A stretch of 64,000 nt of DNA from an uncultured virus (IMG/VR IMGVR_UViG_3300010348_001764) (IMGVR_UViG_3300010348_001764); one strand, 5' to 3'; positions 17,274 to 43,983 are shown, counted from the first letter of the stretch. A program made the numbers and translations. The notes: generated by a model not told the origin, from the letters alone.

Positions 17274-18323
17274 ATGGAACCGAAACTTCTCACGCGCGAT
17301 GAGTTCCGCGAAGCCGTCTTCAAGCGGGACGGCTACCGCTGCGTGCTGTGTGGCCGCTCCGCTGAGGAGACGCCCGAGGGCAAGCTCGACGCGCACCACA
17401 TCATCGAGCGCCGGCTCTGGGGCAACGGCGGCTACTACCTCGACAACGGCGCGACCGTGTGCGAGGAGCACCACCTCGGCTGCGAGCAGACCAACTACAG
17501 CGTTGAGTGGGTTCGCGAGAAGGCCGGCATCACCAAGATCCTGGTGCCTGATCAGTTCTACCCCGAGCAGCCCATCGACAAGTGGGGCAACTACATCCTC
17601 GAGGACGGTCGCCGTACCCGAGGCGAGCTGTTCTACGACGAGAGCGTGCAGAAGGTGCTTGCTCAGGGCGGTGTCCTGGACCTCTTCACGCCCTACGTGA
17701 AGTACGGTCGTACGTTCCACCTGCCCTGGAGCCCAGGTGCTCATGACGACGACAAGACCCTGAACGATGCCTCCCAGTTCGAGGGCAAGCGGGTCATCGT
17801 CACGAAGAAGATGGATGGCGAGAACACGACCGCGTACAGCGACGGACACGTCCATGCCCGCTCGATCGACAGCAAGGGCGGCGAGGACCGCGCCTGGGTC
17901 AAGCAGTTTCTCGTGAACAACGTCTGCTTTAACCTGCCTGAAGGCTGGCGTGTCTGCGGCGAGAACCTCTGGGCTGAGCACTCGATCCACTACTACGATC
18001 TACCCTCGTACTTCCTCGGCTTCAGCCTCTGGAACGAGCGCAACGTCTGCCTGTCGTGGGACGAGACGCTGGAGTACTTCTCGCTGCTTGGCATCACGCC
18101 GGTTGAGGTGGTGTACGACGGCACCTGGGACGAGAAGAAGATCCGAGCCATCTGCGAGGGCATCGACACCAACAAGGAAGAGGGCGTCGTTGTTCGCAAG
18201 GCCGCCAGCTTCAAGTACGGCGAGTTCAAGTCGAGCATCGCCAAGTACGTCCGGGCTGGCCACGTGCAGTCAGTTTCCCACTGGCGTCACAAGCGATTGA
18301 TTCAAAACGAACTTGCTTCGTGA
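17274..18323 (+). CDS. HNH domain - ATP-dependent RNA ligase (Rnl2-like) fusion
   Basis: RDGYRCVLC..AHHI..CEEHH then KMDGEN, GEN, EGVVVR, KYVR ligase motifs. Confidence 0.85.
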   Translation: MEPKLLTRDEFREAVFKRDGYRCVLCGRSAEETPEGKLDAHHIIERRLWGNGGYYLDNGATVCEEHHLGCEQTNYSVEWVREKAGITKILVPDQFYPEQPIDKWGNYILEDGRRTRGELFYDESVQKVLAQGGVLDLFTPYVKYGRTFHLPWSPGAHDDDKTLNDASQFEGKRVIVTKKMDGENTTAYSDGHVHARSIDSKGGEDRAWVKQFLVNNVCFNLPEGWRVCGENLWAEHSIHYYDLPSYFLGFSLWNERNVCLSWDETLEYFSLLGITPVEVVYDGTWDEKKIRAICEGIDTNKEEGVVVRKAASFKYGEFKSSIAKYVRAGHVQSVSHWRHKRLIQNELAS

Positions 18324-21213: not shown

Positions 21214-21555
21214 ATGCTGATCCAAGAACTTCTGCTGATCGAGGCCTCAATGCAAGGCGCCCTCAAGAAGGCGCTCAAGCCGGCCGGCACCTTCGATGAC
21301 GTCTTCGGTCGCAACGCCGATGAGATCGCTGACGCGGTACACGACAAGGCAACCTCAAAGGTCTTCGTCGTTGACACGTCAAAGCCAGATGCGGCAGCTG
21401 CCGTCAAGGGCGTCATGAGCTCACCGACCTTCGCTGAGCTGCACGCCGTTCGCATCATCCGCCTCGGTGGTTCCAACCGCGCCATCGTCAGCAATGGCAA
21501 GGTCTACTTCGGTTCCTACCAAGCTGGTCGTCTGATCGAGCATGAAGCTGCTTGA
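21214..21555 (+). CDS. hypothetical protein (MLIQELLLIEA)
   Basis: ORF with RBS. Confidence 0.6.
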   Translation: MLIQELLLIEASMQGALKKALKPAGTFDDVFGRNADEIADAVHDKATSKVFVVDTSKPDAAAAVKGVMSSPTFAELHAVRIIRLGGSNRAIVSNGKVYFGSYQAGRLIEHEAA

Positions 21556-22078
21556 GGTTTCAGGTATCACGCCTGAGAAGGCATGGCACATGGTGGAGAT
21601 GCTCTCGCACACCATCGGCGTGAGCATGCGTCGGCCAGAGAAGTACGGTGAGGACCTGCCGTTCGACGGCGGTCGCGTGATGTACGACGCCCTGCAGATG
21701 ATGAAGGGCGTGAAGTTCGACCATGATGGACACTTCGTTCGCTCCGAGATCAGACCGATGATCGACATGGAGCACTACATGTCGAAGCTCCGCCTGCTGT
21801 ACGGCTCCAACAACGATGAAGTTGGCAACATCGCCCAGTACAACGATCTACTCCAAAGGCGCGGCTTTGAGCCAGCTGAGTGGATGAAGCCGCTCATCGA
21901 TGCTGCTAAGCTGCTCTCCGACAACCGCACCATGATGGAAACTCACCTCGAGGCCGTGTCGCACGTGAGTGAGTACTTCTTCACTCTTGCTTCGTTGCTT
22001 GGCCCCAAGTCGACCTCTGATGATCACGACAAGGCGCTGATCCGCGCCGTGTTCAAGAACCTAGGGATGCTGAAGTGA
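21542..22078 (+). CDS. hypothetical protein (MKLLEV)
   Basis: coupled ORF. Confidence 0.65.
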   Translation: MKLLEVSGITPEKAWHMVEMLSHTIGVSMRRPEKYGEDLPFDGGRVMYDALQMMKGVKFDHDGHFVRSEIRPMIDMEHYMSKLRLLYGSNNDEVGNIAQYNDLLQRRGFEPAEWMKPLIDAAKLLSDNRTMMETHLEAVSHVSEYFFTLASLLGPKSTSDDHDKALIRAVFKNLGMLK

Positions 22079-22096
22079 GTGTAACAACCTGCACGT

Positions 22097-22139
22097 GTTA
22101 CACATTCGCTGTGTACTTCACCGGCCAGGGTGATACAGT
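22097..22139 (+). promoter_or_regulatory. early-type promoter GTTACA-N8-GTGTAC-N17-TACAGT
   Basis: matches recurring promoter motif. Confidence 0.6.
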
Positions 22140-22221
22140 AGCAACATCGACCAAGCAATCGCAAGAGCGCAAGGTCACCGATCAACCTGGGTTTAACGGT
22201 TCCAAACCGCGAAACCCTGTA

Positions 22222-22227
22222 TATAAT
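22222..22227 (+). promoter_or_regulatory. -10 box TATAAT for leader/tRNA array
   Basis: perfect -10 about 40 nt upstream of leader ATG. Confidence 0.65.
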
Positions 22228-22265
22228 CTCAACATCTACTCTTCAACGAGCACTTGGACTTCATC

Positions 22266-22388
22266 ATGATCACCCGTAACGTCAAAACCACGAAGATGTT
22301 CTGGCAACAGCGCCAGAATACCGTCGTGCGCTTTGAGCGCCACGAGATTGATCGAATGGCCCTGGTTCTCGGGGAGACGAAAGCCTAA
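22266..22388 (+). CDS. putative attenuator leader peptide MITRNVKTTKMFWQQRQNTVVRFERHEIDRMALVLGETKA
   Basis: 40-aa ORF (not in track) overlapping antiterminator strand; codon content mirrors downstream tRNAs. Confidence 0.8.
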   Translation: MITRNVKTTKMFWQQRQNTVVRFERHEIDRMALVLGETKA

Positions 22389-22418
22389 CAAGCTTCAGTC
22401 AAACACCAAGAACCAGGG
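22360..22418 (+). promoter_or_regulatory. antiterminator helix
   Basis: CCCTGGTTCT (22360-69) complementary to AGAACCAGGG (22409-18), which overlaps the 5' arm of the terminator. Confidence 0.8.
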
Positions 22419-22451
22419 ACCTCGCGAAAGCAAGGTCCCTGGTTTGTTTTT
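22411..22451 (+). terminator. intrinsic terminator (attenuator)
   Basis: AACCAGGGACCT-cGCgaaaGCa-AGGTCCCTGGTT then TGTTTTT. Confidence 0.88.
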
Positions 22452-22657
22452 GGATGTAGAGAAAACCGCTTGAAAGTCCAGCGGTATACAAGCAGGATGA
22501 CCGCTTTGAACCGGCCGAGTACTCTTCAGGCCGACGAGTGCGAAAAGGGATGGATAGTTTGATCCATGGGCCGCCCAGTGCAAACGACGGGCAGTTCCCA
22601 TGGGTCCATTCTTCAGCCTACAAGAAGTTGTCTGAAGAATGGATCGTATGTTACAAT

Positions 22658-22733
22658 GGGTCTGTCGTCTAACTGGCAAGATCTACGCCTCCAAAGCGTG
22701 AGGATGGGAGTTCAAATCTCTCCGGGCCCGCCA
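22658..22733 (+). tRNA. tRNA-Trp(CCA)
   Basis: cloverleaf, loop CT-CCA-AA, 3' CCA. Confidence 0.88.
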
Positions 22734-22734
22734 C

Positions 22735-23193
22735 ATGCATCACATCATCTACAAAACCACCTGCGAACCAACAGGAAAGTTCTACATCGGGATGCACACG
22801 ACCGATGATCTGAACGATGGCTATCTCGGAAGCGGGCTTCACCTCAAGCGATCGATCAAGAAACATGGTCGATCTGCGCACCGTGTAGAAGTGCTTGAAC
22901 AGCATTCGACACGGGAGAAGCTTGCTGAACGAGAACGGCAGATCGTAGATGAGCATCTCAGTAATGAGCTCTGCATGAACATCAAACGCGGTGGAGAAGG
23001 TGGGGGACACTTCTGGTCTAAAGAGCAGCAAGCTAAGGCTGCAAGTGCCGGAGGAAAGACTTCAACCAATGCCAACTTCATCGACAGTCTCGCGATCGCG
23101 AAAGCTTCGCAGACACGCAAAGAAAGATACGGACCAACGTACTACGCTGACATCGCAAAGAAGCGTTGGGCCAAACTAAACATGGGTCGCTAG
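22735..23193 (+). CDS. GIY-YIG (Seg-like) homing endonuclease
   Basis: IYKTT..FYIGMH..YLGSG; lower GC. Confidence 0.8.
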   Translation: MHHIIYKTTCEPTGKFYIGMHTTDDLNDGYLGSGLHLKRSIKKHGRSAHRVEVLEQHSTREKLAERERQIVDEHLSNELCMNIKRGGEGGGHFWSKEQQAKAASAGGKTSTNANFIDSLAIAKASQTRKERYGPTYYADIAKKRWAKLNMGR

Positions 23194-23259
23194 CTCAATT
23201 GGCAGAGTTCCGGTCTCCAAAACCGGCGGTTCGGGGTTCGAGTCCCTGGCGGCCCGCCA
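23184..23259 (+). tRNA. tRNA-Trp(CCA)
   Basis: cloverleaf, CT-CCA-AA. Confidence 0.92.
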
Positions 23260-23264
23260 AGAAC

Positions 23265-23348
23265 ATGACAACCGAACGGATGATGGTTATCTTTGATTCG
23301 TACTCAAACTTGCCGAAAGGCATACCCGTCGCCACACCTTGTTGTCAT
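23265..23348 (+). ncRNA. Y-RNA (Yrl)-like RNA A
   Basis: ATGACAAC/GTTGTCAT stem, CCGAA, inner stem, GGTTATC, two hairpins. Confidence 0.6.
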
Positions 23349-23358
23349 ACAATTCAGT

Positions 23359-23436
23359 TGGGGAGAAGGCAAAGTGGTCGAGCCGCCTGCCTCTGAAGCA
23401 GGTCACTAGTGAGTTCGAGTCTCACCTCCCTTGCCA
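23359..23436 (+). tRNA. tRNA-Gln(CTG)
   Basis: CCTGC-CTCTGAA-GCAGG, T-arm, CCA. Confidence 0.85.
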
Positions 23437-23443
23437 AACACAT

Positions 23444-23518
23444 GCCGCGGTAGCTCTCAGGGAGGGCCGCTCGCTGTCTACGAGATGCAGGCGGGTTCGA
23501 GTCCCGTCCGCGGCGCCA
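23444..23518 (+). tRNA. tRNA-Asp(GTC)
   Basis: loop CT-GTC-TA, GCCA end. Confidence 0.85.
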
Positions 23519-23526
23519 AACACAAT

Positions 23527-23602
23527 GCCGCTGTCGTATAGCTGGTGCGTACGCGGGTCTGAAAAGCCTGAGGAGACGGTTCGATTCCGTACGGCGGCAC
23601 CA
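23527..23602 (+). tRNA. tRNA-Phe(GAA)
   Basis: loop CT-GAA-AA. Confidence 0.88.
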
Positions 23603-23607
23603 ACAAT

Positions 23608-23683
23608 AGCCTTGAGAGTGAATGGGATTCCTCTGTCCTTCACATGGACGGGTTGCGAGGTTCGAGTCCTCGCTAGGCCACCA
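23608..23683 (+). tRNA. tRNA-Val(CAC), mismatched acceptor stem
   Basis: loop TT-CAC-AT, T-arm, ACCA. Confidence 0.7.
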
Positions 23684-23691
23684 AACACTAT

Positions 23692-23763
23692 CTCACCGCT
23701 CATGGAGGAGGCCGACGGTTGCGAGCCGTTGGAATGCTGGTTCGAATCCAGCCGGTGGGTCCA
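23692..23763 (+). tRNA. non-canonical tRNA-Arg(GCG), 72 nt
   Basis: no 8-9 linker, 3-bp D stem, 7-bp anticodon stem. Confidence 0.75.
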
Positions 23764-23769
23764 AGCTAT

Positions 23770-23845
23770 CTCGCCGTCGTACAACGGACTAGTACAGGAC
23801 GCTACGAACGTTCAAATGGGGGTTCGATTCCCTCCGGCGGGTCCA
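23770..23845 (+). tRNA. tRNA-Arg(ACG)
   Basis: canonical cloverleaf, CT-ACG-AA. Confidence 0.9.
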
Positions 23846-23885
23846 CTTTTCAACGAGTAAATAGGGCACCACACAGAGGAGCCCC

Positions 23886-24518
23886 ATGAAGAACTACGCA
23901 GTGAACGACGTTTCAGGCCGCGATCGGCTTGCTATTCCAGCAGGTGGCACGTTTCCTCGTGCGCCTCTGATCGGCGAGCTGTTCTTCCTGTCGTGTGACA
24001 TGCCCGCTGACACCAACCCGCTGCTGCCGTGGTACTCACGCGGCACCTACGCCTTCGGTGGCGTAGTTTGGGAGAAGCTCAGCGACGTTCCTCGAGCCCG
24101 CAAGGTCGGCATCATCGGTGCCCGCGAGGTCGAGAACGAAGTTCCAGTCAAGCTTGGTACACCACCGAGCCTGCGAGAAGGAACCGAGATCGTCACTGTT
24201 GCAGTTCGCCCGACCAACCGCCGCGCCACCTTCTCTGGCACCGCCACCATGTGGCTCAACACGAGAAGCGCTGGTACCGTTTGGGTTGCCGTCTTCAACA
24301 AGCTGAAGCTCTGCGCCCTTGCAGCTCAGTACGTGGAGCCGGACAAATCAGCTTCGCTCAACGTGTCGTTCTACGACGCACCGAGCACGCACGAAGAGCA
24401 GACGTACTCTCTTCGTGTTTACTCAGACGTGAAGAACGTCTTCTTCATCAACCGCGGCGACCTCGCCCACTTTGATGGAGTTGCACAGACCGCCTTCATC
24501 GTCGAAGAGAACACGTAA
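23886..24518 (+). CDS. hypothetical late protein, virion/fibre-associated-like
   Basis: late promoter, RBS; GTFP..P..GELFF motif resembles tail-fibre N-termini in this window. Confidence 0.7.
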   Translation: MKNYAVNDVSGRDRLAIPAGGTFPRAPLIGELFFLSCDMPADTNPLLPWYSRGTYAFGGVVWEKLSDVPRARKVGIIGAREVENEVPVKLGTPPSLREGTEIVTVAVRPTNRRATFSGTATMWLNTRSAGTVWVAVFNKLKLCALAAQYVEPDKSASLNVSFYDAPSTHEEQTYSLRVYSDVKNVFFINRGDLAHFDGVAQTAFIVEENT

Positions 24519-24522
24519 TCAC

Positions 24523-24597
24523 GGGGTCAAAACTTTGACGGTGAAGCTTCGCCTCTTAAGCGACTGGAACTTGGTTCGAATCCAAGTGGCCCCACCA
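24523..24597 (+). tRNA. tRNA-Lys(CTT)
   Basis: loop CT-CTT-AA. Confidence 0.85.
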
Positions 24598-24603
24598 ATC
24601 TAT

Positions 24604-24679
24604 GCTGCGTTCGTCTAGGGGACCAGGACACGACCCTTTCACGGTTGGAACGCGGGTTCGAATCCCGCACGCAGTACCA
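24604..24679 (+). tRNA. tRNA-Glu(TTC)
   Basis: loop CT-TTC-AC. Confidence 0.9.
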
Positions 24680-24685
24680 AAACTT

Positions 24686-24770
24686 GGGCCGTTGGCAGAG
24701 CGGTTATGCAGCGGACTCTTAATCCGTAGGAGCAATCCTGATCTGGGTTCGACCCCCAGGCGGCCCACCA
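24686..24770 (+). tRNA. tRNA-Lys(CTT) with long variable arm
   Basis: GCGGA-CTCTTAA-TCCGT then AGGAgcaaTCCT arm. Confidence 0.8.
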
Positions 24771-24778
24771 AGTTTCAT

Positions 24779-24853
24779 ACACCCATCGACTACAGGAAGG
24801 TCGGCGAGGCTCTCACCCCGCAGGCACGGGTTCGAATCCCGTTGGGTGTCCCA
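24779..24853 (+). tRNA. tRNA-Glu(CTC), bulged anticodon stem
   Basis: loop CT-CTC-AC. Confidence 0.75.
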
Positions 24854-24858
24854 ACAAT

Positions 24859-24947
24859 ACTCCTGAATACAAAGGGTCGAGTGGCTGGGCTTTCACCCCA
24901 GTAGGCGTAACAGCTGTTAGCAGGTTCAAGTCCTGTCAGGAGTGCCA
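24859..24947 (+). tRNA. tRNA-Glu(TTC) with long variable arm
   Basis: CTGGG-CTTTCAC-CCCAG then 18-nt variable region. Confidence 0.78.
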
Positions 24948-24955
24948 GAATCAAT

Positions 24956-25031
24956 GCCCCTGGAGTGCGTGCGGATTGCATGCGACCTTGGTATGGTTGC
25001 GGATCGGGTTCGACTCCCGATGGGGGCACCA
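24956..25031 (+). tRNA. tRNA-Thr(GGT)
   Basis: loop TT-GGT-AT. Confidence 0.8.
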
Positions 25032-25038
25032 CAACGAT

Positions 25039-25112
25039 GGACGTATCGTATATGGGTATTACCCACGCCTGTCTAGCGTGAGAACGGGGTTCGAGTCCCC
25101 GTACGTCCGCCA
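25039..25112 (+). tRNA. tRNA-Asp(GTC)
   Basis: loop CT-GTC-TA. Confidence 0.88.
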
Positions 25113-25118
25113 AACAAT

Positions 25119-25194
25119 GGACTCTGTCGTCTAACGGCAGGACACCTGCTAAGAAGCAGGTGATGGTTGGTTCGAATCCACCCAGGGTCCCCCA
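25119..25194 (+). ncRNA. tRNA-like RNA, 8-bp acceptor, 6-nt anticodon loop
   Basis: GGACTCTG/CAGGGTCC + C-CCA; CCTGC-TAAGAA-GCAGG. Confidence 0.7.
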
Positions 25195-25200
25195 ATCAAT

Positions 25201-25274
25201 GGTGTTGCTAGTGTAGTGGAAGCACGACTGTCTGTGAAACAGTAAGCGAGGGTTCGATTCCCAGCTTCACCCCA
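25201..25274 (+). tRNA. tRNA-His(GTG), imperfect stems
   Basis: G-1:C73, loop CT-GTG-AA. Confidence 0.75.
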
Positions 25275-25277
25275 AGA

Positions 25278-25381
25278 ATTGTCTGTAGCTCAGTCGGTAG
25301 AGCAGCAACCACCTCATGGCGAAGGGCCAAACGCTGGTGGGTAAAGTAGGCCGTCGGTTCGAGTCCGACCAGATGATCCCA
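25278..25381 (+). ncRNA. tRNA-like RNA with expanded anticodon domain
   Basis: canonical D and T arms, 8-bp acceptor + C-CCA, about 43-nt irregular arm replacing anticodon arm. Confidence 0.7.
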
Positions 25382-25387
25382 TTCGAT

Positions 25388-25464
25388 GGTGTAGGTAGCT
25401 CAATTGGTAGAGCCCTGGATTGTGATTCCAGCCGCTGCGGGTTCGAGTCCCGTCCTACACCCCA
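25388..25464 (+). tRNA. tRNA-His(GTG)
   Basis: G-1, loop TT-GTG-AT. Confidence 0.92.
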
Positions 25465-25472
25465 ACAATCAT

Positions 25473-25546
25473 GCTCTGTTAGGATAGTGGTAGTCTGACT
25501 CTCTCGTAAGGAGTAGGCGAGTGTTCGATTCACTCACAGAGCACCA
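25473..25546 (+). tRNA. tRNA-Thr(CGT)
   Basis: loop CT-CGT-AA. Confidence 0.85.
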
Positions 25547-25557
25547 ACAGATTCTAT

Positions 25558-25635
25558 TCCGCGAGAGGCGTCATGGTGACAACCGCACCGCTGTTAACGG
25601 TGATTAGTCAGGTTCGATTCCTGGTCGCGGAGCCA
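25558..25635 (+). tRNA. tRNA-Asn(GTT)
   Basis: loop CT-GTT-AA, U1-A72, G73. Confidence 0.88.
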
Positions 25636-25649
25636 ATCTAAATAGACTC

Positions 25650-26285
25650 ATGAAAACCTTTGAGTTGCTTGAAAACAAGGTTCCTTGCCCTGTTTGTGGT
25701 AAGGAGTACAAACCACTTGGTCTTGCTTCGCACGTTAACCAACAGCATAATCCAGACTATGTGAACCCGCGGTCTACGGGAAAGGAAATCTGGAATAAGG
25801 GCAAAAAGAAAACAAACAATTCAAGTGTAGAACGAATCAGTCAAGCACTGCGTGGTAAGCCAACATGGTCAAAAGGAAAAGCGGCCTCAGATGGGCGCCG
25901 AGCGGCTACTTCTGCTTCAATGAAGAAAGCCCATGCTGAAAATAGGGCGCACAACATTGGTGCAAGTCGCTGGAACAATGAGCCTTCATACCCGGAGAAA
26001 TTCTTTGCAGATGTTATCCGCAACGAATTTGCTGACAAGAACTTCAAACAGGAATATCCTGTTGGCCGCTACAGCATTGATTTTGCCTGGCCGCACTTGA
26101 TGAAAGCCATCGAGATTGATGGTGATCAACACGAACGATTTGAGAAGCAGCGCGAAAGCGATGCACGCAAAGACAAAGTACTTGAGACAGCAGGATGGAA
26201 AGTTTTGCGTGTCAAGTGGAAGAAGATGTATGCTGACACTAAAGCAGAAATTGCTAGGTGCAAGGCTTTCATTGATGGCCAATAG
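25650..26285 (+). CDS. homing-type endonuclease: C2H2 finger, NUMOD-like repeats, Vsr/DUF559-like domain
   Basis: CPVC..HVNQQH; YSIDFA..AIEIDGDQH..GWKVLRV; low GC. Confidence 0.8.
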   Translation: MKTFELLENKVPCPVCGKEYKPLGLASHVNQQHNPDYVNPRSTGKEIWNKGKKKTNNSSVERISQALRGKPTWSKGKAASDGRRAATSASMKKAHAENRAHNIGASRWNNEPSYPEKFFADVIRNEFADKNFKQEYPVGRYSIDFAWPHLMKAIEIDGDQHERFEKQRESDARKDKVLETAGWKVLRVKWKKMYADTKAEIARCKAFIDGQ

Positions 26286-26316
26286 GAGCCGGGTTCGATT
26301 CCTGGGCGGCCAGCCA
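26276..26316 (+). pseudogene. tRNA 3' remnant (T-arm, acceptor strand, CCA)
   Basis: CCGGG-TTCGATT-CCTGG-GCGGCCA-G-CCA with no D or anticodon arm. Confidence 0.65.
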
Positions 26317-26324
26317 AACACGAA

Positions 26325-26396
26325 ACCCCTGCCGAAGGAACGGCGGCACGCCTCCTAAGCGAGCATGCGCTGGTTCGAGTCCAGCCAGGGGTACCA
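26325..26396 (+). tRNA. non-canonical tRNA-Arg(CCT), 72 nt
   Basis: CCG-AAGGAA-CGG D-arm directly after acceptor; loop CT-CCT-AA. Confidence 0.75.
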
Positions 26397-26402
26397 GAAC
26401 AT

Positions 26403-26477
26403 GGTGGTGTAGCATTGAGGTAATGCACTTCCCTCATAAGGAAGTCGAAGTCGGTTCGATTCCGACCACCACCTCCA
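26403..26477 (+). tRNA. tRNA-Met or Ile2 (CAT)
   Basis: loop CT-CAT-AA. Confidence 0.88.
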
Positions 26478-26482
26478 AGATC

Positions 26483-26563
26483 GACAGCCGGATTGCAACC
26501 TGACGGTTATCACTTTTCATGATCACCCCGTCTAAACGCGCGCTCGAAAGAGCCTTTGCTGTC
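26483..26563 (+). ncRNA. Y-RNA (Yrl)-like RNA B
   Basis: GACAGC/GCTGTC stem, CCGGA, GACGG/CCGTC with GGTTATC. Confidence 0.5.
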
Positions 26564-26568
26564 ACAAT

Positions 26569-26643
26569 TGCTCCTTAGCTCAGTGGTAGAGCAGCGTCTT
26601 GATAAGGCGAAGGTCGTAGGTTCAATCCCTACAGGAGCAACCA
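26569..26643 (+). tRNA. tRNA-Ile(GAT)
   Basis: loop TT-GAT-AA. Confidence 0.9.
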
Positions 26644-26650
26644 GAACATT

Positions 26651-26724
26651 GCCCGCGTAGCTCAATGGTAGAGCACTGCTTTGACACGGCAGATACAGTG
26701 GTTCGATTCCACTCGTGGGTACCA
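26651..26724 (+). tRNA. tRNA-Val(GAC)
   Basis: loop TT-GAC-AC. Confidence 0.9.
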
Positions 26725-26730
26725 TCCAGT

Positions 26731-26807
26731 TGGCCGGTAGCTTAAGGGGAAGAGCGGCGTGGTTCTGAGCCACGAGGGCCTCGGTTCGAGTCCGAGACGG
26801 CTTGCCA
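26731..26807 (+). tRNA. tRNA-Gln(CTG)
   Basis: loop TT-CTG-AG. Confidence 0.78.
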
Positions 26808-26814
26808 ATTCTGA

Positions 26815-26892
26815 TGGGGAGAAGCCAAAGTGGTCGAGGCACTGCGCTTTGAACGCAGTCACTAGTCGGTTCGAGTCCGACCTCCCTTGCCA
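26815..26892 (+). tRNA. tRNA-Gln(TTG)
   Basis: loop CT-TTG-AA; body paralogous to 23359. Confidence 0.85.
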
Positions 26893-26954
26893 ACAACTTG
26901 AAAGGAGCGCGCTATGCGTTCAGCCACCAGCGCCTCCGGAAAACGCCCCTTCAA

Positions 26955-27043
26955 GGGGGTGTGACCGAGAGGCCGAAGGTATCGGGCTTTTAACCCGACG
27001 CGGGAAACCGCCACCGTGGGTTCGACTCCCACTGCCCTCACCA
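26955..27043 (+). tRNA. tRNA-Lys(TTT) with long variable arm
   Basis: TCGGG-CTTTTAA-CCCGA then GCGGgaaaCCGC arm. Confidence 0.8.
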
Positions 27044-27054
27044 CTAAATACTGC

Positions 27055-27270
27055 ATGCGAGTAGGTGAACTCATTCCTCTGAGCGGTACGCACTTTCTGT
27101 CGAAGGCCTCGGTCCCGGCAGGCAAGGCAGCCGTCGCCAACCTCGGAGTGCTGGGTATCTCCATCGGCATCGGCAAGCCGTCAGGCACAACGTCGACACC
27201 ATCCGTCCCGATGCCCAAGTACAAGACCATCCCTGGGCACACGCAGGGCGTAGCTGCACCACGAAAGTAA
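27055..27270 (+). CDS. small late protein (MRVGELIPLS)
   Basis: TAAATA at 27045; fills the gap between tRNAs. Confidence 0.5.
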   Translation: MRVGELIPLSGTHFLSKASVPAGKAAVANLGVLGISIGIGKPSGTTSTPSVPMPKYKTIPGHTQGVAAPRK

Positions 27271-27271
27271 C

Positions 27272-27343
27272 ACCCCCGCCGGAGGAGCGGAGGCTTTCCT
27301 TCTAAGTTAGCCGATGGGGGTTCGAGTCCCTCCGGGGGTATCA
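27272..27343 (+). tRNA. non-canonical tRNA-Arg(TCT), 72 nt, ends TCA
   Basis: same fold as other 72-nt Arg tRNAs. Confidence 0.7.
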
Positions 27344-27350
27344 CATCCAT

Positions 27351-27426
27351 GCCTGGGTAGCTGAGAGGTTCAAGCGCTGCTTTCACACAGCAGAGCATGT
27401 GGGTTCGAGTCCCACACCAGGTACCA
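27351..27426 (+). tRNA. tRNA-Val(CAC)
   Basis: loop TT-CAC-AC. Confidence 0.88.
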
Positions 27427-27433
27427 CTTCCAT

Positions 27434-27505
27434 ACCGCGGCCGAAGGAACGGCGCTGGCCCTCCGAAGGCTGGACGCTGGGGTTCGAGTCCCCTCCGCGG
27501 TTCCA
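27434..27505 (+). tRNA. non-canonical tRNA-Arg(CCG), 72 nt
   Basis: CCG-AAGGAA-CGG D-arm; loop CT-CCG-AA. Confidence 0.75.
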
Positions 27506-27539
27506 TCTTCCATACTCAACATCTCCAAGGAGAGCTCCG

Positions 27540-27707
27540 ATGTCACAAGTCGCCAAGAAGAAGCAGAAGCTGATCGAACGCCTTGCTGTCCTCGAAGCCG
27601 AGCTCCGTCTCGCTCTACAGAAGAAGGCGTCCTCAGCTGCCGAGATCGACGTGCCTGGCAAAACCAAGCGCATTCAGGAGCTGCGACGGGAGATCGCGGC
27701 TCTGTAA
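27540..27707 (+). CDS. small coiled-coil protein
   Basis: AAGGAG RBS. Confidence 0.65.
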   Translation: MSQVAKKKQKLIERLAVLEAELRLALQKKASSAAEIDVPGKTKRIQELRREIAAL

Positions 27708-27716
27708 GGAGCCCAC

Positions 27717-28049
27717 ATGGACACCACCTTCAGGACCAAGTTCCTGACCAACACCGACGACACCGGTCGGTTCATCGTTGTCTCGCGCCGCACCGGCCGA
27801 ACGTACTACGTTGAGCCGATCGAGACAGCCCACACTCCCAAGTGGGGCTCGGTTGACCCAGCAACGGGCAACCTCATGCACAAGAAGGGCGACGGCAAGT
27901 TCCGTGGCGGCATTTCACCTAGTGAAAGTCTGATCACGCCTGAGAACGGCTTTGACCCTGAGAAGATCACGATGCTTGAGCGCGGGACCTCCCCGCTTCA
28001 CGCAATCGATGTCCTGGACGCAAAGTACCCGGACAAGGCAGCAGCCTGA
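27717..28049 (+). CDS. hypothetical protein
   Basis: TAAGGAG RBS. Confidence 0.75.
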   Translation: MDTTFRTKFLTNTDDTGRFIVVSRRTGRTYYVEPIETAHTPKWGSVDPATGNLMHKKGDGKFRGGISPSESLITPENGFDPEKITMLERGTSPLHAIDVLDAKYPDKAAA

Positions 28050-28058
28050 CAGAAGTCT

Positions 28059-28086
28059 GAGGAGAGCTCTGAGAGCTCTCCTCTCC
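28059..28086 (+). terminator. hairpin closing the tRNA operon
   Basis: GAGGAGAGCTCT..AGAGCTCTCCTC inverted repeat; weak U tract. Confidence 0.5.
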
Positions 28087-28145
28087 TGCCTCCATCCCTA
28101 AATACGCTGTGCCGCTATCGGGGCATGATAGGAACACAGCGCTAG

Positions 28146-28982
28146 ATGAAGCTCCTCCTCGCGATCGCTCTCCTTCTGCTGAGCAGTTTCACGGCAGCTA
28201 AGGACAGCCCTCCGGCTTTCACCGTCTTCACAGGATCGGTGCGTGGTACGTACTACGCCTTCGCTGAGGACATTCGCCGCGCCTGCCCATCCATCCCAAT
28301 CTCCATCGTTGCCACAGACGGCTCCACCGACAACCTCAACCGGTTGGTGCAGCCCAGCAACGGCACGAACCGCATCGGCTTCAGCCAGCTAGACGCGGTT
28401 CAGGGCCTCAGCCCCTCTGAGGCCAGCATCGCGCGCCTGCAAACGGTGCTGCAGATGTACAACGAGGACGTCTCAGTTCTTGTCAACCTCGGCTCCAACA
28501 TCAAGACAATCTCCGACCTGCGCGGTAAGCGCGTGGCTATCGGTCAGCCCGGTTCTGGAGTGTGGTACAGCTCCAGCTACATTCGTCGCCTGCTCAACAT
28601 CGACTGGATCGCGGTTGAGCAGGGCAACGATGAGGCTCTCCTGAGCCTCCTTCTCGGTGAGGTAGACGCCATCTTCCTCATCACAGGCCACCCATCTCGC
28701 CTCCTTAACGACCTACCGAAGTCGGTGGAACGGCGAGTTGGGCTGATCAACCTTAGCACGCTGAGCAGCAGGAGCCACTTTGCCGCCTCAGTCCTACCAG
28801 CAAACACGTACCCGTGGCAGAGCTCGTCGGTAGAGCTCGTCGCCGTCCGCTCAGTTCTCATGGCGGCCAGCGATGTTTCCCCTGCAGCACTCAAGGCGCT
28901 AACAACGTGCATTAAACAAGCAGAGCCAGAGCTGAAGAAATGGGGCCACCCAAAGTGGTCAGAAATCAACCTCGCAAAGTGA
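28146..28982 (+). CDS. TAXI-family TRAP transporter solute-binding protein
   Basis: signal peptide; TGS.RGTYY, TDGSTDN, DLRGKRVAIGQPGSG. Confidence 0.85.
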   Translation: MKLLLAIALLLLSSFTAAKDSPPAFTVFTGSVRGTYYAFAEDIRRACPSIPISIVATDGSTDNLNRLVQPSNGTNRIGFSQLDAVQGLSPSEASIARLQTVLQMYNEDVSVLVNLGSNIKTISDLRGKRVAIGQPGSGVWYSSSYIRRLLNIDWIAVEQGNDEALLSLLLGEVDAIFLITGHPSRLLNDLPKSVERRVGLINLSTLSSRSHFAASVLPANTYPWQSSSVELVAVRSVLMAASDVSPAALKALTTCIKQAEPELKKWGHPKWSEINLAK

Positions 28983-35211: not shown

Positions 35212-35531
35212 AGCTTGACGAAGTCAAGCAGCCAAAGGCGTCTCGCAGCGGGCTGAACACCGCGCTCAAGTCGTTCTACGAGCTGCAGGGGTGGGACCCT
35301 TCGACCATTCGAATCACGACTGAAAGCTACTACGAGGAGAACCCGAAGTACCCGACCCCGAAGGGCCAGCCGTGGAAGGATCCAATCCGGGTCCCTCACT
35401 GGTTCTTCTCGATCCCTGACAAGTCCAAGCGCCCTCTTCTGACGAAGTACCTCCAGGGACTGGGCTTTCGCTGCGACCTTGGGTACAGCAAGGGCACCGC
35501 CCAAATGGAAGCTTCCGTAGCTCCAACCTGA
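35208..35531 (+). CDS. hypothetical protein (MKLDEV)
   Basis: coupled ORF. Confidence 0.6.
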   Translation: MKLDEVKQPKASRSGLNTALKSFYELQGWDPSTIRITTESYYEENPKYPTPKGQPWKDPIRVPHWFFSIPDKSKRPLLTKYLQGLGFRCDLGYSKGTAQMEASVAPT

Positions 35532-35562
35532 ATTTCTGTGTGTCCTTCGCACACCGGTCGTA

Positions 35563-35568
35563 TATAAT
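35563..35568 (+). promoter_or_regulatory. -10 box TATAAT for ncRNA-Ro60 unit
   Basis: GTATATAAT, same context as 22219-27. Confidence 0.65.
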
Positions 35569-35599
35569 AGCACATGCGTTGGAGCAATTCAGCGTATGA

Positions 35600-35750
35600 C
35601 GATTGGACCCAACCGATCGGCAACGGTTATCCTACGGATGCCGTGCCTCTAGAGGACGAGCACTCTCCTCTATGCATGCAAACAGAAGGCAAGGGCTGGC
35701 AATCCCTACCATTTCCGTTCCTCTCTTTGTTGGCCCATTCTACCCAATCG
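35600..35750 (+). ncRNA. Y-RNA (Yrl)-like RNA C
   Basis: CGATTGG/CCAATCG ends; CCAA-CCGA..AACGG-TTATC..ATTT-CCGTT..TTG-TTGG; upstream of Ro60. Confidence 0.6.
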
Positions 35751-35757
35751 AAATTCT

Positions 35758-36049
35758 TCTACACAGCACGCGGACCGCTTGGAGTTGGTTATCTACTCAA
35801 AGTGACCGTAAGGATCTGAGCTACCTACGCAAGTTGAAAGACAAGCCGGGCCAGTTCAGGGTACGCCGCCAAAACCCTACGAGCGGATAGGTGCGTCATC
35901 GCCGAAAATGATGGACGTTGGTGGGTCGAATACCACATGAGCGATCGGCCGCGAACTAACGCCGATGTAGGTCGTAGGTACAAGCCCGCAAGGGATTACC
36001 GCAGACCGAAATTTCCGACACCGCAATTTCGTCAGCGTGCTGCTGTAGA
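35758..36049 (+). ncRNA. large (about 290 nt) Y-RNA-like RNA D
   Basis: TCTACA-CAGCACGC/GCGTGCTG-c-TGTAGA closing stem; GTTGG-TTATC..ATTT-CCGAC; GNRA hairpins; T-arm-like GTGG-GTCGAATA-CCAC. Confidence 0.6.
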
Positions 36050-36094
36050 TCAACTTGCTGTCACCCACAGCCGAACTCATAGGAGAACCACACC

Positions 36095-37581
36095 ATGTCC
36101 AAGACGTACATCGACTTCGCTGCCGCTGAGAAGGTCCTGAAGGCCGCCACGCCGCAGTCACAGGCCATCCCGGGTCGTGAGACCGAGATGAAGCGCAACA
36201 ACGCTGGTGGCGTGACCTTCACGCTCGACCAGTGGGGCGTCCTGGACCGGTTCCTCGTGATCGGCTCGGAAGGTGGCAACTACTACGTTGGTGAGCGCGA
36301 CGTCACCAAGCAGTCGTTCGACGTGGTGAAGAAGTGCGTGGCGGCCGACGGCCTGCGCACCGTTGCCCGCGCTGTCGAGTACTCGACGGCTGGTCGTGCC
36401 CCGAAGAACGACCCGGCAGTTGTCGTGCTGGCCCTCGCGGCCGTGTACGGTGACGAGAAGACCAAGGAAGCCGCCTTCGAGGCGCTGCCGAAGGTCGCCC
36501 GCACGGGTACGTGGCTGTTCATGTTCGTCGCCATCGTCGACAGCCTCGGCAAGTGGAACGCCGCTACCAAGCGCGGCGTTGCAAAGTGGTACACGTCCAA
36601 GACCGTGGACCGCCTGGCCGTCCAGCTGCTGAAGTACCAGTCGCGCAACGGCTGGGCACACCGCGACGTCCTGCGCCTGGCGCACGTGAAGCCGTCGAGC
36701 GAAGTGCAGTCAAACCTCTTCCGCTACGCGGTCAAGGGCTCCGACGGCATGGAGCTGGGCATGAACGTGCCGCAGCTGGTGGTCGACTTCGAGATGCTGA
36801 AGCGCACGGACCGCAAGGCCGATGTGCTGCGCCTCATCGCGTCGAACAAGGACCTGACGTGGGAAATGGTGCCAACGCAGTGGCACAAGGACAACGACGT
36901 CATGATGGCTCTGCTCCCGGGCATGGGTCTGACGGCGCTGATCCGCAAGCTCGCGCTGTTCTCGCAGAACGGCCTGATCGCCCCGCTGTCGGAAGCTACC
37001 AAGCTGATCGTGGCGAAGCTGTCGGACGCTGAGGCCCTCAAGGCCCAGCGCGTCCACCCGGTCACGCTGCTGAACGCCCAGAAGGTGTTCGCTGCGGGTC
37101 GCCTGCTGAAGCTCCGCCCGGGCCAGGACCAGAAGACGTGGAAGGTCGAGCAGCGCATCGTCGATGCGCTCAACGACGCGTTCTACGCTTCGTTCGGCAA
37201 CGTCGACAAGACGGGTGAGAGCTACCTGCTCGGTGTCGACTGCTCTGGCTCGATGTTCGGTGCAGGTACGGTTGTCGGTCTCGATGCGCTTGTCGCAGCC
37301 GAGGTCGCTGGCGTCATGGCCCTGGCCATCGCCAAGCACCAGCCGAACTACTGGATCGGTGGCTTCAACACGCGCATGAGCGAGCTGAAGATCAGCCCGA
37401 ACATGCGTCTCGAGCAGGCGCTGAAGGTCATTCGTGACTTCAGCTGGGGCGGCACGGACTGCGCTCTGCCGATGCTGCACGCAGCTCAGCACAAGATGCA
37501 GGTGGACAAGTTCGTGACCATCACGGACAACGAGACCTGGGCTGGTTCCATCCAGCCGGTGCAGGCGCTGAAGAAGTACCG
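36095..37581 (+). CDS. rsr: Ro60/TROVE-domain RNA-binding protein (Rsr-like), 3' end in gap
   Basis: NNAGG..LDRFLVIGSEGG, KYQSRNGWAHRDVLRLAH, vWA DCSGSM, GGTDCALPM, TDNETW. Confidence 0.95.
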
Positions 37582-38435
37582 NNNNNNNNNNNNNNNNNNN
37601 NNNNNNNNNNNNNNNNNNNNNNNNNNNNNNNNNNNNNNNNNNNNNNNNNNNNNNNNNNNNNNNNNNNNNNNNNNNNNNNNNNNNNNNNNNNNNNNNNNNN
37701 NNNNNNNNNNNNNNNNNNNNNNNNNNNNNNNNNNNNNNNNNNNNNNNNNNNNNNNNNNNNNNNNNNNNNNNNNNNNNNNNNNNNNNNNNNNNNNNNNNNN
37801 NNNNNNNNNNNNNNNNNNNNNNNNNNNNNNNNNNNNNNNNNNNNNNNNNNNNNNNNNNNNNNNNNNNNNNNNNNNNNNNNNNNNNNNNNNNNNNNNNNNN
37901 NNNNNNNNNNNNNNNNNNNNNNNNNNNNNNNNNNNNNNNNNNNNNNNNNNNNNNNNNNNNNNNNNNNNNNNNNNNNNNNNNNNNNNNNNNNNNNNNNNNN
38001 NNNNNNNNNNNNNNNNNNNNNNNNNNNNNNNNNNNNNNNNNNNNNNNNNNNNNNNNNNNNNNNNNNNNNNNNNNNNNNNNNNNNNNNNNNNNNNNNNNNN
38101 NNNNNNNNNNNNNNNNNNNNNNNNNNNNNNNNNNNNNNNNNNNNNNNNNNNNNNNNNNNNNNNNNNNNNNNNNNNNNNNNNNNNNNNNNNNNNNNNNNNN
38201 NNNNNNNNNNNNNNNNNNNNNNNNNNNNNNNNNNNNNNNNNNNNNNNNNNNNNNNNNNNNNNNNNNNNNNNNNNNNNNNNNNNNNNNNNNNNNNNNNNNN
38301 NNNNNNNNNNNNNNNNNNNNNNNNNNNNNNNNNNNNNNNNNNNNNNNNNNNNNNNNNNNNNNNNNNNNNNNNNNNNNNNNNNNCTTTTTCAGCGGCGCGC
38401 TATCTTCGTACTAATGCCTGTATCGGAGCGGCGCG

Positions 38436-38479
38436 GTTACACTTCGCCTGTGTACGCGCCCAGCGCTGTGTTGTAGAAT
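38436..38479 (+). promoter_or_regulatory. early-type promoter GTTACA-N8-GTGTAC-N18-TAGAAT
   Basis: recurring motif. Confidence 0.7.
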
Positions 38480-38497
38480 GCTTGAAAGGAGATCACC

Positions 38498-38740
38498 ATG
38501 GCACGACAGATGGCAAAGGCCTCGACGGGAGTTCCGCCCGACTGGGCAGGCGTTTCGCTGAACGAGGCGATCCGCGTGTCGCGGGCAAACAAAGCCTGGA
38601 CGGGCTCGTGCAACGCCTGCACGAACGGTCAGTACGAGCTGGGTGCCGATGGCGAGGCCGTCGTGACGAACGTGGACCTCCGCGGCATGTCGTTCCGCCT
38701 CTGCGCCCGTTGCCGCGGTCAGCTCAAGGCGATGCTGTAA
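38498..38740 (+). CDS. small Zn-binding protein
   Basis: CNAC...CARC; AAGGAG RBS. Confidence 0.65.
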   Translation: MARQMAKASTGVPPDWAGVSLNEAIRVSRANKAWTGSCNACTNGQYELGADGEAVVTNVDLRGMSFRLCARCRGQLKAML

Positions 38741-38752
38741 CAGGGTTGGGTT

Positions 38753-38795: not shown

Positions 38796-38824
38796 AGCAC
38801 CATACCAACCCACTGAGGCACACC

Positions 38825-43981: not shown

Positions 43982-43983
43982 TC

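Follow-up and report, generated by a model that had tools for sequence, protein, structure and literature searches.

The tRNA array of an uncultured virus, a giant phage, is preceded by a short open reading frame whose codons mirror the array and by two alternative RNA helices, and we think that this arrangement is probably a ribosome-mediated leader-peptide attenuator that gives feedback on tRNA supply. The window, that is the whole stretch of 64,000 nucleotides analysed here (IMGVR_UViG_3300010348_001764), contains in this order a TATAAT box, a 40-codon ORF, an antiterminator sequence, a strong terminator and the tRNA array (Table 1), and our analysis thus confirms from the sequence the order given in an earlier note on this DNA. 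Control by attenuators is known for amino-acid operons, but for tRNA genes it has not been described, and our literature search found no description of a codon-matched leader attenuator controlling tRNA genes.

Table 1. Positions of the leader, its predicted regulatory elements and the tRNA array in the window.
Feature	Position	Strand	Remarks
Promoter-like region	22183..22227	+	CAACCTG (22183-22189), then GTATATAAT; TATAAT at 22222-22227
Leader ORF	22266..22388	+	40 codons including stop; ATG 22266, TAA 22386-22388
Putative sensor zone	22266..22358	+	codons 1-31, all readable by array tRNAs; run from 22257
Two conserved local hairpins in the ORF	22297..22345	+	RNAalifold consensus, 5 sequences
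Predicted antiterminator 5' strand (region 2)	22360..22369	+	CCCTGGTTCT, within codons 32-35
Region 3 and predicted intrinsic terminator	22409..22451	+	region 3 = 22409-22418, overlaps the terminator
Conserved structured spacer	22452..22657	+	between terminator and first tRNA
tRNA array	22658..27504	+	~30 genes, 13 amino acids
GIY-YIG gene interrupting the array	22735-23193
ORF interrupting the array	23886-24518
HNH gene interrupting the array	25650-26285

The leader ORF and its codon content

Under standard wobble, each of the first 31 codons of the leader ORF (MITRNVKTTKMFWQQRQNTVVRFERHEIDRMALVLGETKA) can be read by an anticodon of the array (31/31). Counted from 22257, the run of readable codons comprises 34 codons, which makes it the longest in the six frames of the window (the next longest has 23), and none of 200,000 dinucleotide shuffles reached 34/34 readable codons. 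The other two frames of the leader contain 11/33 and 17/33 readable codons, and the in-set share of 0.584 among the codons of phage genes gives a probability of ~1e-7 for 30 codons. The GC3 of the ORF is 0.73, as in phage genes (adjacent spurious ORFs: 0.47-0.62). Its Shine-Dalgarno match is weak (-3.0 kcal/mol; 56 genes of the window span 0.4 to -9.5), and a TTG at 22254 offers an alternative start in frame with it. The GC3, the frame that stays open in relatives and the frame-keeping gaps described below are indirect signs that the ORF may be translated.

The promoter-like region upstream of the ORF was absent from the output of the sigma-70 consensus scan. Its arrangement, CAACCTG-NN-TTT-N24-GTATATAAT, is found again at 35524-35568, and in a DNA alignment the region corresponds to TATAAATA in the relatives L025, L026 and L027 and to TATATAAT in L028. 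Within the ORF, the two local hairpins are formed by TGTTCTGGC/GCCAGAATA (22297-22320) and by TCGTGCGCT/AGCGCCACGA (22324-22345), and they possibly play a role in pausing.

Antiterminator and terminator

Region 2 is exactly complementary to AGAACCAGGG (22409-22418). The earlier note had described this complementarity, which holds, but had implied a position of the antiterminator strand one base upstream of the actual one. A complement of 10 nt to the terminator arm was reached by 5 of 5,000 shuffles. The stem of the terminator, 12-14 bp long, pairs AACCAGGGACCT (22411-22422) with AGGTCCCTGGTT (22433-22444) around a CGAAAG loop and is directly followed by the T tract TGTTTTT (22445-22451); the consensus scan reported this hairpin under the minus strand only. 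With -27.4 kcal/mol for the terminator hairpin and -20.7 kcal/mol for the antiterminator duplex, the terminator is always favoured at equilibrium, and thus antitermination must be kinetic. For transcripts that stop short of region 4, at 22420 or 22432, the MFE folds contain the antiterminator, and the fold of the full-length transcript forms the terminator. When the part of the RNA covered by a ribosome was masked, the antiterminator was predicted with the A site at codons 1-27 and was impossible from codon 31 onward; the predicted switch point at codons 29-31 coincides with the first out-of-set codons.

In the window, region 2 pairs weakly with the 5' UTR in the MFE fold, and this pairing is not conserved; the conserved leader structures are the local hairpins plus CCCTG/CGGGG. 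Neither the MFE fold of the leader in the window nor the conserved structures contain a clear 1:2 anti-antiterminator, so that read-through is predicted for an untranslated leader. Prefix folds without a ribosome likewise predict read-through, unlike in the trp attenuator.

Conservation in related phages

The leader module is also present on five diverged phage contigs, and six further database peptides match it. In five lineages besides that of the window, leader ORF, antiterminator and terminator stay together in front of a tRNA array for the same 13 amino acids. Homologous leader ORFs in five loci have 40-44 codons, and the frame is open in 12 sequences. In the sensor zones of 12 leader peptides, 361/370 residues belong to the amino acids served by the array; counted as distinct column states, 76/83 are in-set (binomial 3.6e-11), including 44/49 in the hypervariable N-terminus, whereas in the leader tail the share is 12/22, as by chance. 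The four gap blocks that fall within the ORF each measure 3 nt; outside the ORF, 2/9 internal gap blocks are multiples of three.

Both helices are conserved as well. For the antiterminator, 50/50 cells are paired in five sequences and 2/10 pairs have changed on both sides; for the terminator, 91% of the cells are paired and 4/14 pairs are compensatory. L026 and L028 have lost outer terminator pairs and have kept the antiterminator intact, and a variant, X4, carries no substitution across 22380-22464. The compensatory changes, the shuffles and the ribosome masking support the proposal of the earlier note that antiterminator and terminator exclude each other.

A Cys codon is found in the L028 leader alone and a tRNA-Cys gene in the L028 array alone. 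The His codon of position 26 has been lost from this leader, which has acquired one at position 14. The mirror, which is complete in the window, is not strict in the relatives: Ser codons occur in the leaders of L026, L027, L028, P0004, P0006 and P0008 and one Ala codon in that of L027, with no matching tRNA gene found, and some codons of relatives' leaders, GTG or ACA, have no reader under strict wobble. In a wastewater variant, Arg16 of the leader is replaced by Ser.

Leaders with other alphabets

It had been predicted that a second array for A/L/G/S/P/C/Y should have a complementary leader, and this was found in the relative G002, where such an array is preceded by a complementary leader and a terminator. 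All 27 residues of this second leader (27/27) belong to the set of the second array, a value equalled by 2 of 100,000 shuffles, and it has both an antiterminator and a terminator; two sigma-70-like matches lie between the second terminator and the second array. The cultured Ralstonia phage RsoM2USA contains two mirrored leaders with different alphabets, leader A with 21/21 and leader B with 30/30 residues in-set (each 0/100,000 shuffles), and each has an 8-nt complement to its own terminator arm. In the cultured Xanthomonas phage XacN1, one mirrored ORF has a run of 29 residues (log10P -8.7). When every short ORF located upstream of tRNAs was scored in an unbiased scan, these leaders reached log10P values of -6.8 to -8.7 and the next-best ORF -2.4.

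Spacer and tRNA array

The spacer between terminator and array contains hairpins at 22466-22484 and 22514-22531 and a stem, CCATTCTTCAG/CTGAAGAATGG (22606-22642), which adjoins the first tRNA and co-varies in L026, L027 and L028. Its first ~150 nt are conserved among the window, L025, L027 and L040, and this conservation argues for read-through transcripts. A search for RNA runs that contain this stretch found none. Promoter-like motifs are over-represented downstream of the terminator. Directly next to the first tRNA lies TGTTACAAT (22649-22657), which is specific for the window, and TAAATAG motifs are located inside the array at 23858 and 25639. The motif TGNTAYAAT occurs four times (0.51 expected), and at the spacer position it is absent in the relatives. 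With promoter-like motifs 3' of the terminator and within the array, the leader cannot be the sole switch of the array, and much of the array may be transcribed without read-through.

Between 22658 and 27426, ARAGORN identified 27 tRNA genes, each of them on the + strand, and at a relaxed threshold it identified 30; Rfam added two, one atypical (25279-25377) and one weak (26325-26393). The 29 tRNAs counted in the earlier note lie inside this range. According to the anticodons, the array serves W, Q, D, F, V, R, K, E, T, H, N, M and I; one atypical gene is called as Ala(ggc), at the relaxed threshold only. Two genes have anticodon loops of 6 and 8 bases, and three have long variable arms.

Proposed mechanism

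In the attenuator that we propose, transcription would start near the A/T-rich box at ~22222, and a ribosome would translate the 40-codon leader close behind the RNA polymerase. If the sensor codons (1 to ~29) are all decoded fast, the ribosome would cover 22360-22369 as 22409-22451 emerges, the terminator hairpin would form and the transcript would stop at ~22451. If any sensor codon is slow, or if the leader is untranslated, 22360-22369 would pair with 22409-22418, no terminator would form and the polymerase would transcribe the conserved spacer and then the array. The outcome would be a feedback that fits the supply of the array's tRNA set to the decoding demand, and a second tRNA block has its own complementary leader. 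Since host tRNAs decode the same codons, the sensed quantity would be the total decoding speed and not the phage tRNA alone. We infer translation of the ORF, the kinetic race between ribosome and polymerase at the leader, the read-through of the terminator into the array and the cause of the tRNA depletion.

Comparison with known systems

Leader-peptide attenuators of enterobacteria include ilvGMEDA (with Ile/Leu/Val codons), thr (Thr/Ile), trpL, hisL, leuL and pheL. The phage leader resembles them in its short ORF, here predicted to be translated, in control codons located upstream of the antiterminator strand, and in a mutually exclusive antiterminator and intrinsic terminator of which the terminator is thermodynamically stronger. 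It differs in that it precedes tRNA genes whereas the enterobacterial leaders control biosynthetic enzymes, and in that their codon runs for one to three amino acids are replaced by a putative sensor that devotes one to five codons to each of 13 amino acids (~20 codon types). In addition, it has no clear 1:2 anti-antiterminator, with read-through predicted when translation is absent, and it is phage-borne, with one leader per tRNA block. As proposed here for the phage, the pheST attenuator of E. coli uses the cognate codons of a leader peptide, pheM, to control part of the translation machinery via the supply of charged tRNA; however, the target there is the synthetase for one amino acid and not tRNA genes, and there is no panel of several tRNAs. 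T-box riboswitches bind uncharged tRNA directly and work without translation. They share with the phage leader the sensing of tRNA status, putative in the phage, and an antiterminator/terminator switch upstream of translation-related genes, but in the phage leader a conserved, frame-preserved ORF would do the reading. An Rfam scan of 21500-28200 (E up to 1) detected no T-box or other known cis-regulatory family, and the sole match at the leader was BjrC68 with 20.3 bits (cut-off 39).

During infection, the tRNAs of phage arrays stand in for those of the host or add to them, and it is in this setting that a switch operating on demand would be valuable. Phage tRNAs have been reported to escape tRNA-targeting defences (PMC10264068), and a T5 tRNA is reported to neutralise PARIS (PMC11464382); the available parts of these reports concern what the phage tRNAs do. 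In mycobacteria, polycysteine leaderless short ORFs act as Cys-responsive attenuators (bioRxiv 10.1101/834739), which means that a codon-enriched short ORF reports decoding to downstream genes; in the accessible part of that report they concern one amino acid and metabolic targets, and no intrinsic-terminator switch is stated there.

The link to anticodon nucleases and counter-defence that the earlier note proposed is speculative. It is a tentative idea that large phages in general use codon-matched leader attenuators, one panel sensor per tRNA block, each testing for every codon of its block whether decoding in the cell still works, to induce replacement tRNAs upon loss of host tRNAs. If this were true, the loss would be caused by anticodon nucleases, by defences of the PARIS-like or retron type, or by host shut-off, and a phage tRNA array would be an inducible operon for counter-defence and homeostasis rather than a constant supplement to the codon supply. 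Which tRNAs share a block would then depend on which of them need co-induction.

Alternative explanations

It might also be that translation of the mirrored ORF reports decoding speed, but that the position of the ribosome on the leader acts on how the tRNA precursor is processed, how stable it is or how it folds, and not on termination; one route would be the conserved stem located next to the 5' end of the first tRNA or overlapping it. XacN1 would fit such a control: only 33 nt separate its strongly mirrored ORF from tRNA-Phe, there is no recognisable intrinsic terminator between them, and a hairpin takes in the 5' strand of the tRNA. The co-varying stem next to the first tRNA and the 200-nt spacer conserved in the family of the window point in the same direction. 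We nevertheless consider this explanation unlikely, since a strong terminator together with a complementary antiterminator is located at the end of the ORF in the window, in the second leader of G002 and in both leaders of RsoM2USA, and since the antiterminator co-varies.

About as doubtful is the explanation that promoter, ORF and terminator constitute a stand-alone small gene, encoding a small protein or a structured sRNA, and that the array uses its own downstream promoters; the matching alphabet would then serve synthesis of the peptide, for instance from phage tRNAs alone, and not regulation of the array. An sRNA gene would indeed consist of a promoter, a structured RNA, here of ~215 nt (fold z-score -6.15), and a terminator; the core MFWQQRQNTVVRFERHEID is conserved, 5/6 substitutions of a natural variant are at positions predicted to be unpaired, and the promoter-like motifs downstream of the terminator would suit this explanation. 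However, TGTTACAAT is not conserved in the relatives whereas the spacer is, the variable sites per codon position (10, 7 and 12 of 35) indicate no strong selection on the peptide, and both the codon alphabet and the indels, which keep the frame, suggest translation. A stand-alone gene also leaves unexplained that the alphabet ends exactly where the antiterminator starts, that the antiterminator co-varies, and that four unrelated leaders each match their own downstream block.

We give almost no credence to a spurious ORF in the 3' untranslated region of an upstream operon, ahead of the operon terminator: a run of + strand genes stops at 22078 and might have its end at this terminator, and the earlier note set the boundary at codon 31 after the sequence had been seen, but no shuffle equalled the codon run, the module is conserved with its frame kept in five other lineages, the upstream gene has no relatives, the sequence of a relative diverges sharply upstream of ~22228, and the match between leader and own array recurs in three further leader types. 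Sequence statistics thus already refute a chance origin of the leader ORF at their level.

A leader ORF with the alphabet of its tRNA array

The window, with a G+C content of about 60%, covers part of a large phage genome, which would span roughly 370 kb, judging from the 12% completeness assigned to a near-identical IMG/VR record of 44 kb. Distant relatives, reached via the RNA ligase and PrkA-like proteins, are the jumbo phages RsoM2USA (Ralstonia), CcrSC type (Caulobacter) and SCTP-2 (Salicola). ARAGORN found 27 tRNA genes with default settings and 30 at a relaxed threshold, and Rfam added an atypical one. Judged from the anticodons, the array serves 13 amino acids: W, Q, D, F, V, R, K, E, T, H, N, M and I.

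The earlier note had claimed that the codons of the leader ORF mirror the array downstream. This claim proves correct, and the pattern departs strongly from randomness: all of the first 31 codons are readable by array anticodons. Starting at 22257, 34 consecutive in-frame codons are readable; no frame of the 64 kb has a longer run, and the runner-up (23 codons) lies inside a charged low-complexity stretch. Dinucleotide-preserving shuffling of the leader segment gave 34/34 in none of 200,000 trials, and in its remaining two frames 11/33 and 17/33 codons are readable. Since in-set codons make up 0.584 of the codons in the phage's own genes, 30 consecutive ones have a probability of about 1e-7. 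The leader ORF has a GC3 of 0.73, which falls within the 0.7-0.95 of most phage genes and above the 0.47-0.62 of overlapping spurious ORFs. The idea that hairpin symmetry imposes the restricted alphabet does not hold, since reverse complementation of the set's codons yields codons outside it.

Features of the leader element, its surroundings, and related leaders and arrays
Feature	Position	Description
End of upstream gene	22078	followed by a lower-G+C stretch
CAACCTG	22183-22189	upstream of A/T-rich box
TATATAAT	22220-22227	A/T-rich box
Leader ORF	ATG 22266, TAA 22386-22388	40 codons
AGAACCAGGG	22409-22418	3' of leader ORF
Terminator stem	22411-22422 with 22433-22444	perfect 12 bp, CGAAAG loop
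T tract	22445-22451	TGTTTTT, directly 3' of stem
Spacer	between T tract and first tRNA	200 nt
tRNA genes	22658 to about 27504	
RNA ligase gene	17274-18323	HNH-like N-terminal part
GIY-YIG homing-endonuclease gene	22735-23193	between two different tRNA-Trp genes
HNH homing-endonuclease gene	25650-26285	inside array
tRNAs with long (type II-like) variable arms	24686-24770, 24859-24947, 26955-27043	anticodons of Lys(CTT), Glu(TTC), Lys(TTT)
tRNAs with irregular anticodon loops	24779-24853, 25119-25194	one of 6 bases (ct), one of 8 bases (aaga)
Atypical tRNA-like gene	25279-25377	about 100 nt; Rfam 40 bits
Arg tRNA-like genes	26325-26398, 27270-27340, 27432-27504	CCT, TCT, CCG
Second CAACCTG...GTATATAAT box and following stretch	35524-36094	about 530 nt without obvious gene
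Three genes	42026-47031	GC3 0.92-0.94
Low-G+C islands	4001-6000, 36001-40000	0.39 and about 0.50; background 0.60
G002, box upstream of block 2	about 520 nt upstream	GAACCTG-NN-TTT...TATATAGAAT; layout as at window leader
G002, leader 2		33-codon ORF VNSLGLPSSSLLLTTGSGSAVCAPAYPAEAAQG, then terminator with CGAAAG loop
RsoM2USA, leader A		MTSHWHSYSLPVSSLELYCLEVEMT; codons 3-23 readable 21/21 by following tRNAs
RsoM2USA, leader B		MFNAFNNNQRQNQAAMFDVRAIAFNAKNDIKGVALVE; 30/30 match to following tRNAs
RsoM2USA, further ORF	about 111841-112029, minus strand	40 codons, between leader A terminator and tRNA-Pro
Arrays of L026, L027, L040		exactly the 13 amino acids (ARAGORN)
Array of L025		the 13 and a doubtful Gly(ccc) (ARAGORN)
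Array of L028		12/13 and Cys at default; Trp at relaxed threshold only (ARAGORN)

Conservation of alphabet, frame and helices

Six diverged database peptides match the leader peptide with 78-88% identity. With this peptide we found four diverged IMG/VR loci (L025-L028) and a fifth, L040, on a 10-kb contig of a genome bin. All five share one order: A/T-rich box, ORF of 40-44 codons, CCCTGGTCTT, terminator, conserved spacer and tRNA array. Gene order and inserted homing-endonuclease genes vary among the relatives' arrays, and the same 13 amino acids are kept. A GTDB match, L041, was a false positive within a bacterial gene, and many contig joints resembling unrelated tRNAs were excluded from use. 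With the flanking genes, array DNA and exact terminator as queries, the phage collection and IMG/VR yielded only generic tRNA matches or the same phage; the upstream gene had no homologue besides itself, tblastn of the leader against the phage collection gave nothing relevant, and the shared promoter pattern matched solely the window's own phage.

An alignment of 12 leader sequences has a conserved core, MFWQQRQN.VVRFERHEID, preceded by 5-12 residues that are almost wholly different among lineages. In the sensor zone (codons 1-31 in the window), 361 of 370 residues belong to the 13-letter set. Counted as distinct states per column, 76 of 83 are in-set (binomial 3.6e-11, p = 0.59), and the hypervariable N-terminus alone gives 44/49 (2e-6); the tail overlapping the antiterminator is chance-like (12/22). 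The out-of-set states are five Ser, one Ala and one Cys. Among the loci compared, the Cys codon is confined to the leader of L028 and tRNA-Cys(GCA) to its array. The same leader has lost His codon 26 and has a new His codon at position 14, and its CGG codon has a matching Arg(ccg) gene at the relaxed threshold. All 13 amino acids are present in the sensor part of each leader at the five loci analysed.

Within the ORF all four gap blocks are of 3 nt, and outside it two of nine internal blocks are multiples of three. Columns vary at all three codon positions (10, 7 and 12 of 35 for positions 1, 2 and 3), which points to no strong protection of the amino-acid sequence itself. The antiterminator pairing is intact in 50/50 cells, with two adjacent pairs altered on both sides in the window versus the other four sequences. 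For the terminator, 91% of cells are paired and four pairs are compensatory; L026 and L028 have lost the outer terminator pairs, and their AAGACC strand is still complementary to the 5' strand of the antiterminator. The long 5'-3' pairing in the MFE fold of the window leader is not conserved among the relatives. A natural variant of the leader in a wastewater run (X4) carries six substitutions in the ORF, none in 22380-22464, and at least 21 substitutions and eight indels over the next 120 nt. Five of the six lie at predicted unpaired positions, and one (Arg16 to Ser) leads outside the 13-letter set.

Leaders with other alphabets

A second array for A, L, G, S, P, C and Y with a complementary leader had been predicted, and it was found in a relative. 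L025 is part of the 106-kb record G002, whose 53 tRNA matches fall into two blocks; the second serves Y, S, A, L, P, G and C as well as some V, K, M, T, I and N. This block is preceded by its own leader (leader 2) and terminator. After the start, 27 of 27 residues of leader 2 are in the block 2 set, reached by two of 100,000 shuffles, and 23 of 27 are A, L, G, S, P, C or Y. Five Ser and four Leu codon types each have a matching anticodon downstream. Prefix folds also predict an antiterminator here. An extended leader 2 query found no protein homologue, the neighbouring gene matched only itself, and the antiterminator plus terminator pattern matched itself and five unrelated sites without tRNAs. 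No leader precedes the single tRNA genes of G002 and G003 (Arg-CCT, CUA suppressor), only plain promoter boxes. The CUA suppressor tRNA gene at L031 in G002 is preceded by a tRNA-like 3' end (oriented 1700-1750).

Searching related phages for upstream ORFs whose codons match their own array, as the earlier note advised, revealed such ORFs with differing alphabets. The 73-kb tRNA region of the cultured phage RsoM2USA contains two leader units, both preceded by TATAAATA. Leader A is followed by tRNAs for Pro, Cys, Glu, Tyr, Leu, Trp, Ser, His and Val, and leader B by those for Met, Ile, Asn, Gln, Lys, Arg, Phe, Ala, Val, Pro, Asp and Thr; these identities are ARAGORN calls and may differ from Supplementary Table 6 (PMC8504454). 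No match this complete arose in 100,000 shuffles of either leader, and both have 8 nt complementary to the 5' arm of their own terminator. The tRNA passages of the RsoM2USA genome paper do not mention a terminator, promoter or leader. The further ORF downstream of leader A, read from the sequence, has a good ribosome-binding site and encodes a very basic peptide. The cultured Xanthomonas phage XacN1 has one mirrored ORF 3' of a TAAATAG box, in which a run of 29 residues corresponds to the eight tRNAs that follow (F, D, I, A, V, H, S, R), with no clear terminator between the ORF and tRNA-Phe. An unbiased scan of all 18-70-codon ORFs at most 450 nt upstream of a tRNA, a limit beyond which leader 2 lies, gave log10P values of -6.8 to -8.7 for the leaders and -2.4 for the best other ORF.

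Predicted mode of action and its limits

The 10-base complementarity of codons 32-35, the proposed antiterminator strand, to the terminator 5' arm was equalled in 5 of 5,000 shuffles. In folds of the growing transcript, the antiterminator is predicted to form once 22409-22420 is present and to be displaced by the terminator only when 22433-22446 is present. With a modelled ribosome, the antiterminator probability is about 1 while the A site is at codons 1-27, falls to 0.31 at codon 29 and is 0 at codon 31 and beyond; its predicted loss coincides with the end of the restricted alphabet. The terminator (-27.4 kcal/mol) is stronger at equilibrium than the antiterminator (-20.7 kcal/mol), so the choice between them must be made kinetically, by a race like that of classical attenuators. 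In contrast to the trp attenuator, the untranslated leader is predicted to read through. A ribosome-mediated attenuator is the probable reading, well supported by comparative evidence.

The promoter-like motifs downstream of the terminator argue against a simple master switch. TGNTAYAAT occurs four times in the window (17259, 22649, 39145, 61420; 0.51 expected), and the copy at 22649 adjoins the first tRNA and is missing from the corresponding place in the relatives. Two copies lie 6 nt 5' of an ATG, which suggests leaderless mRNAs there. TAAATAG occurs 13 times (0.46 expected; e.g. 2308, 19206, 23858, 25639, 33478), nearly always just 5' of genes, and at 23858 and 25639 it precedes both protein genes inserted in the array. 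It is also found directly 5' of single tRNA genes in a relative (L030), and is likely a promoter motif of this phage clade. The array tRNAs downstream of 23858 probably have additional promoters, and G002 has two sigma-70-like matches between its second terminator and the array. The spacer after the window terminator is conserved and structured and lacks a shared promoter box, which would fit read-through transcripts.

The reasons for phages to carry tRNA genes, and the use made of them, have been a matter of debate for decades. Published work reportedly treats phage tRNAs as counter-defence; for the leader, this purpose is speculation. A full-text literature search found no paper on leader-peptide control of tRNA genes. 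If the attenuator reading is true, phage tRNA supply is regulated on demand, with transcription of a block tied to decoding of the same block's codons, and leader-peptide attenuation extends from amino-acid metabolism to the tRNA pool. The leader would then also work as a small natural gauge of how fast about 20 codon types are decoded, all in one reading. Since the element is small and present in two cultured phages, direct tests with reporters and in vitro systems are possible. For annotation, a short ORF whose alphabet matches the tRNAs behind it would indicate where a tRNA transcription unit starts.

Unusual tRNAs and other genes

Long-arm tRNA genes also occur in L025, L026 and L027, where they are called Asn, Gln, Glu, Met, Ile and Lys. 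The atypical tRNA-like gene of the window is read by ARAGORN as His with an insert or as Ala(ggc), depending on settings. ARAGORN detected none of the three Arg tRNA-like genes by default and TCT and CCG in the relaxed run, and Rfam detected CCT weakly; read from the sequence, they carry a near-identical GAAGGAACGGCG or GGAGGAGCGGAG in the D-arm region. In L026 and L028 a putative endonuclease gene follows the conserved spacer. The RNA ligase gene, 4 kb upstream of the leader and common to jumbo phages, may serve tRNA repair.

The stretch without obvious gene after the second CAACCTG box is followed by a 793-aa protein matching PHROG 850 (RNA-binding protein) and may encode a non-coding RNA. 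Among the three genes with high GC3, the first matches records annotated YeaG or serine kinase and has relatives in megaphage records, and the second weakly matches a sporulation-protein PHROG.
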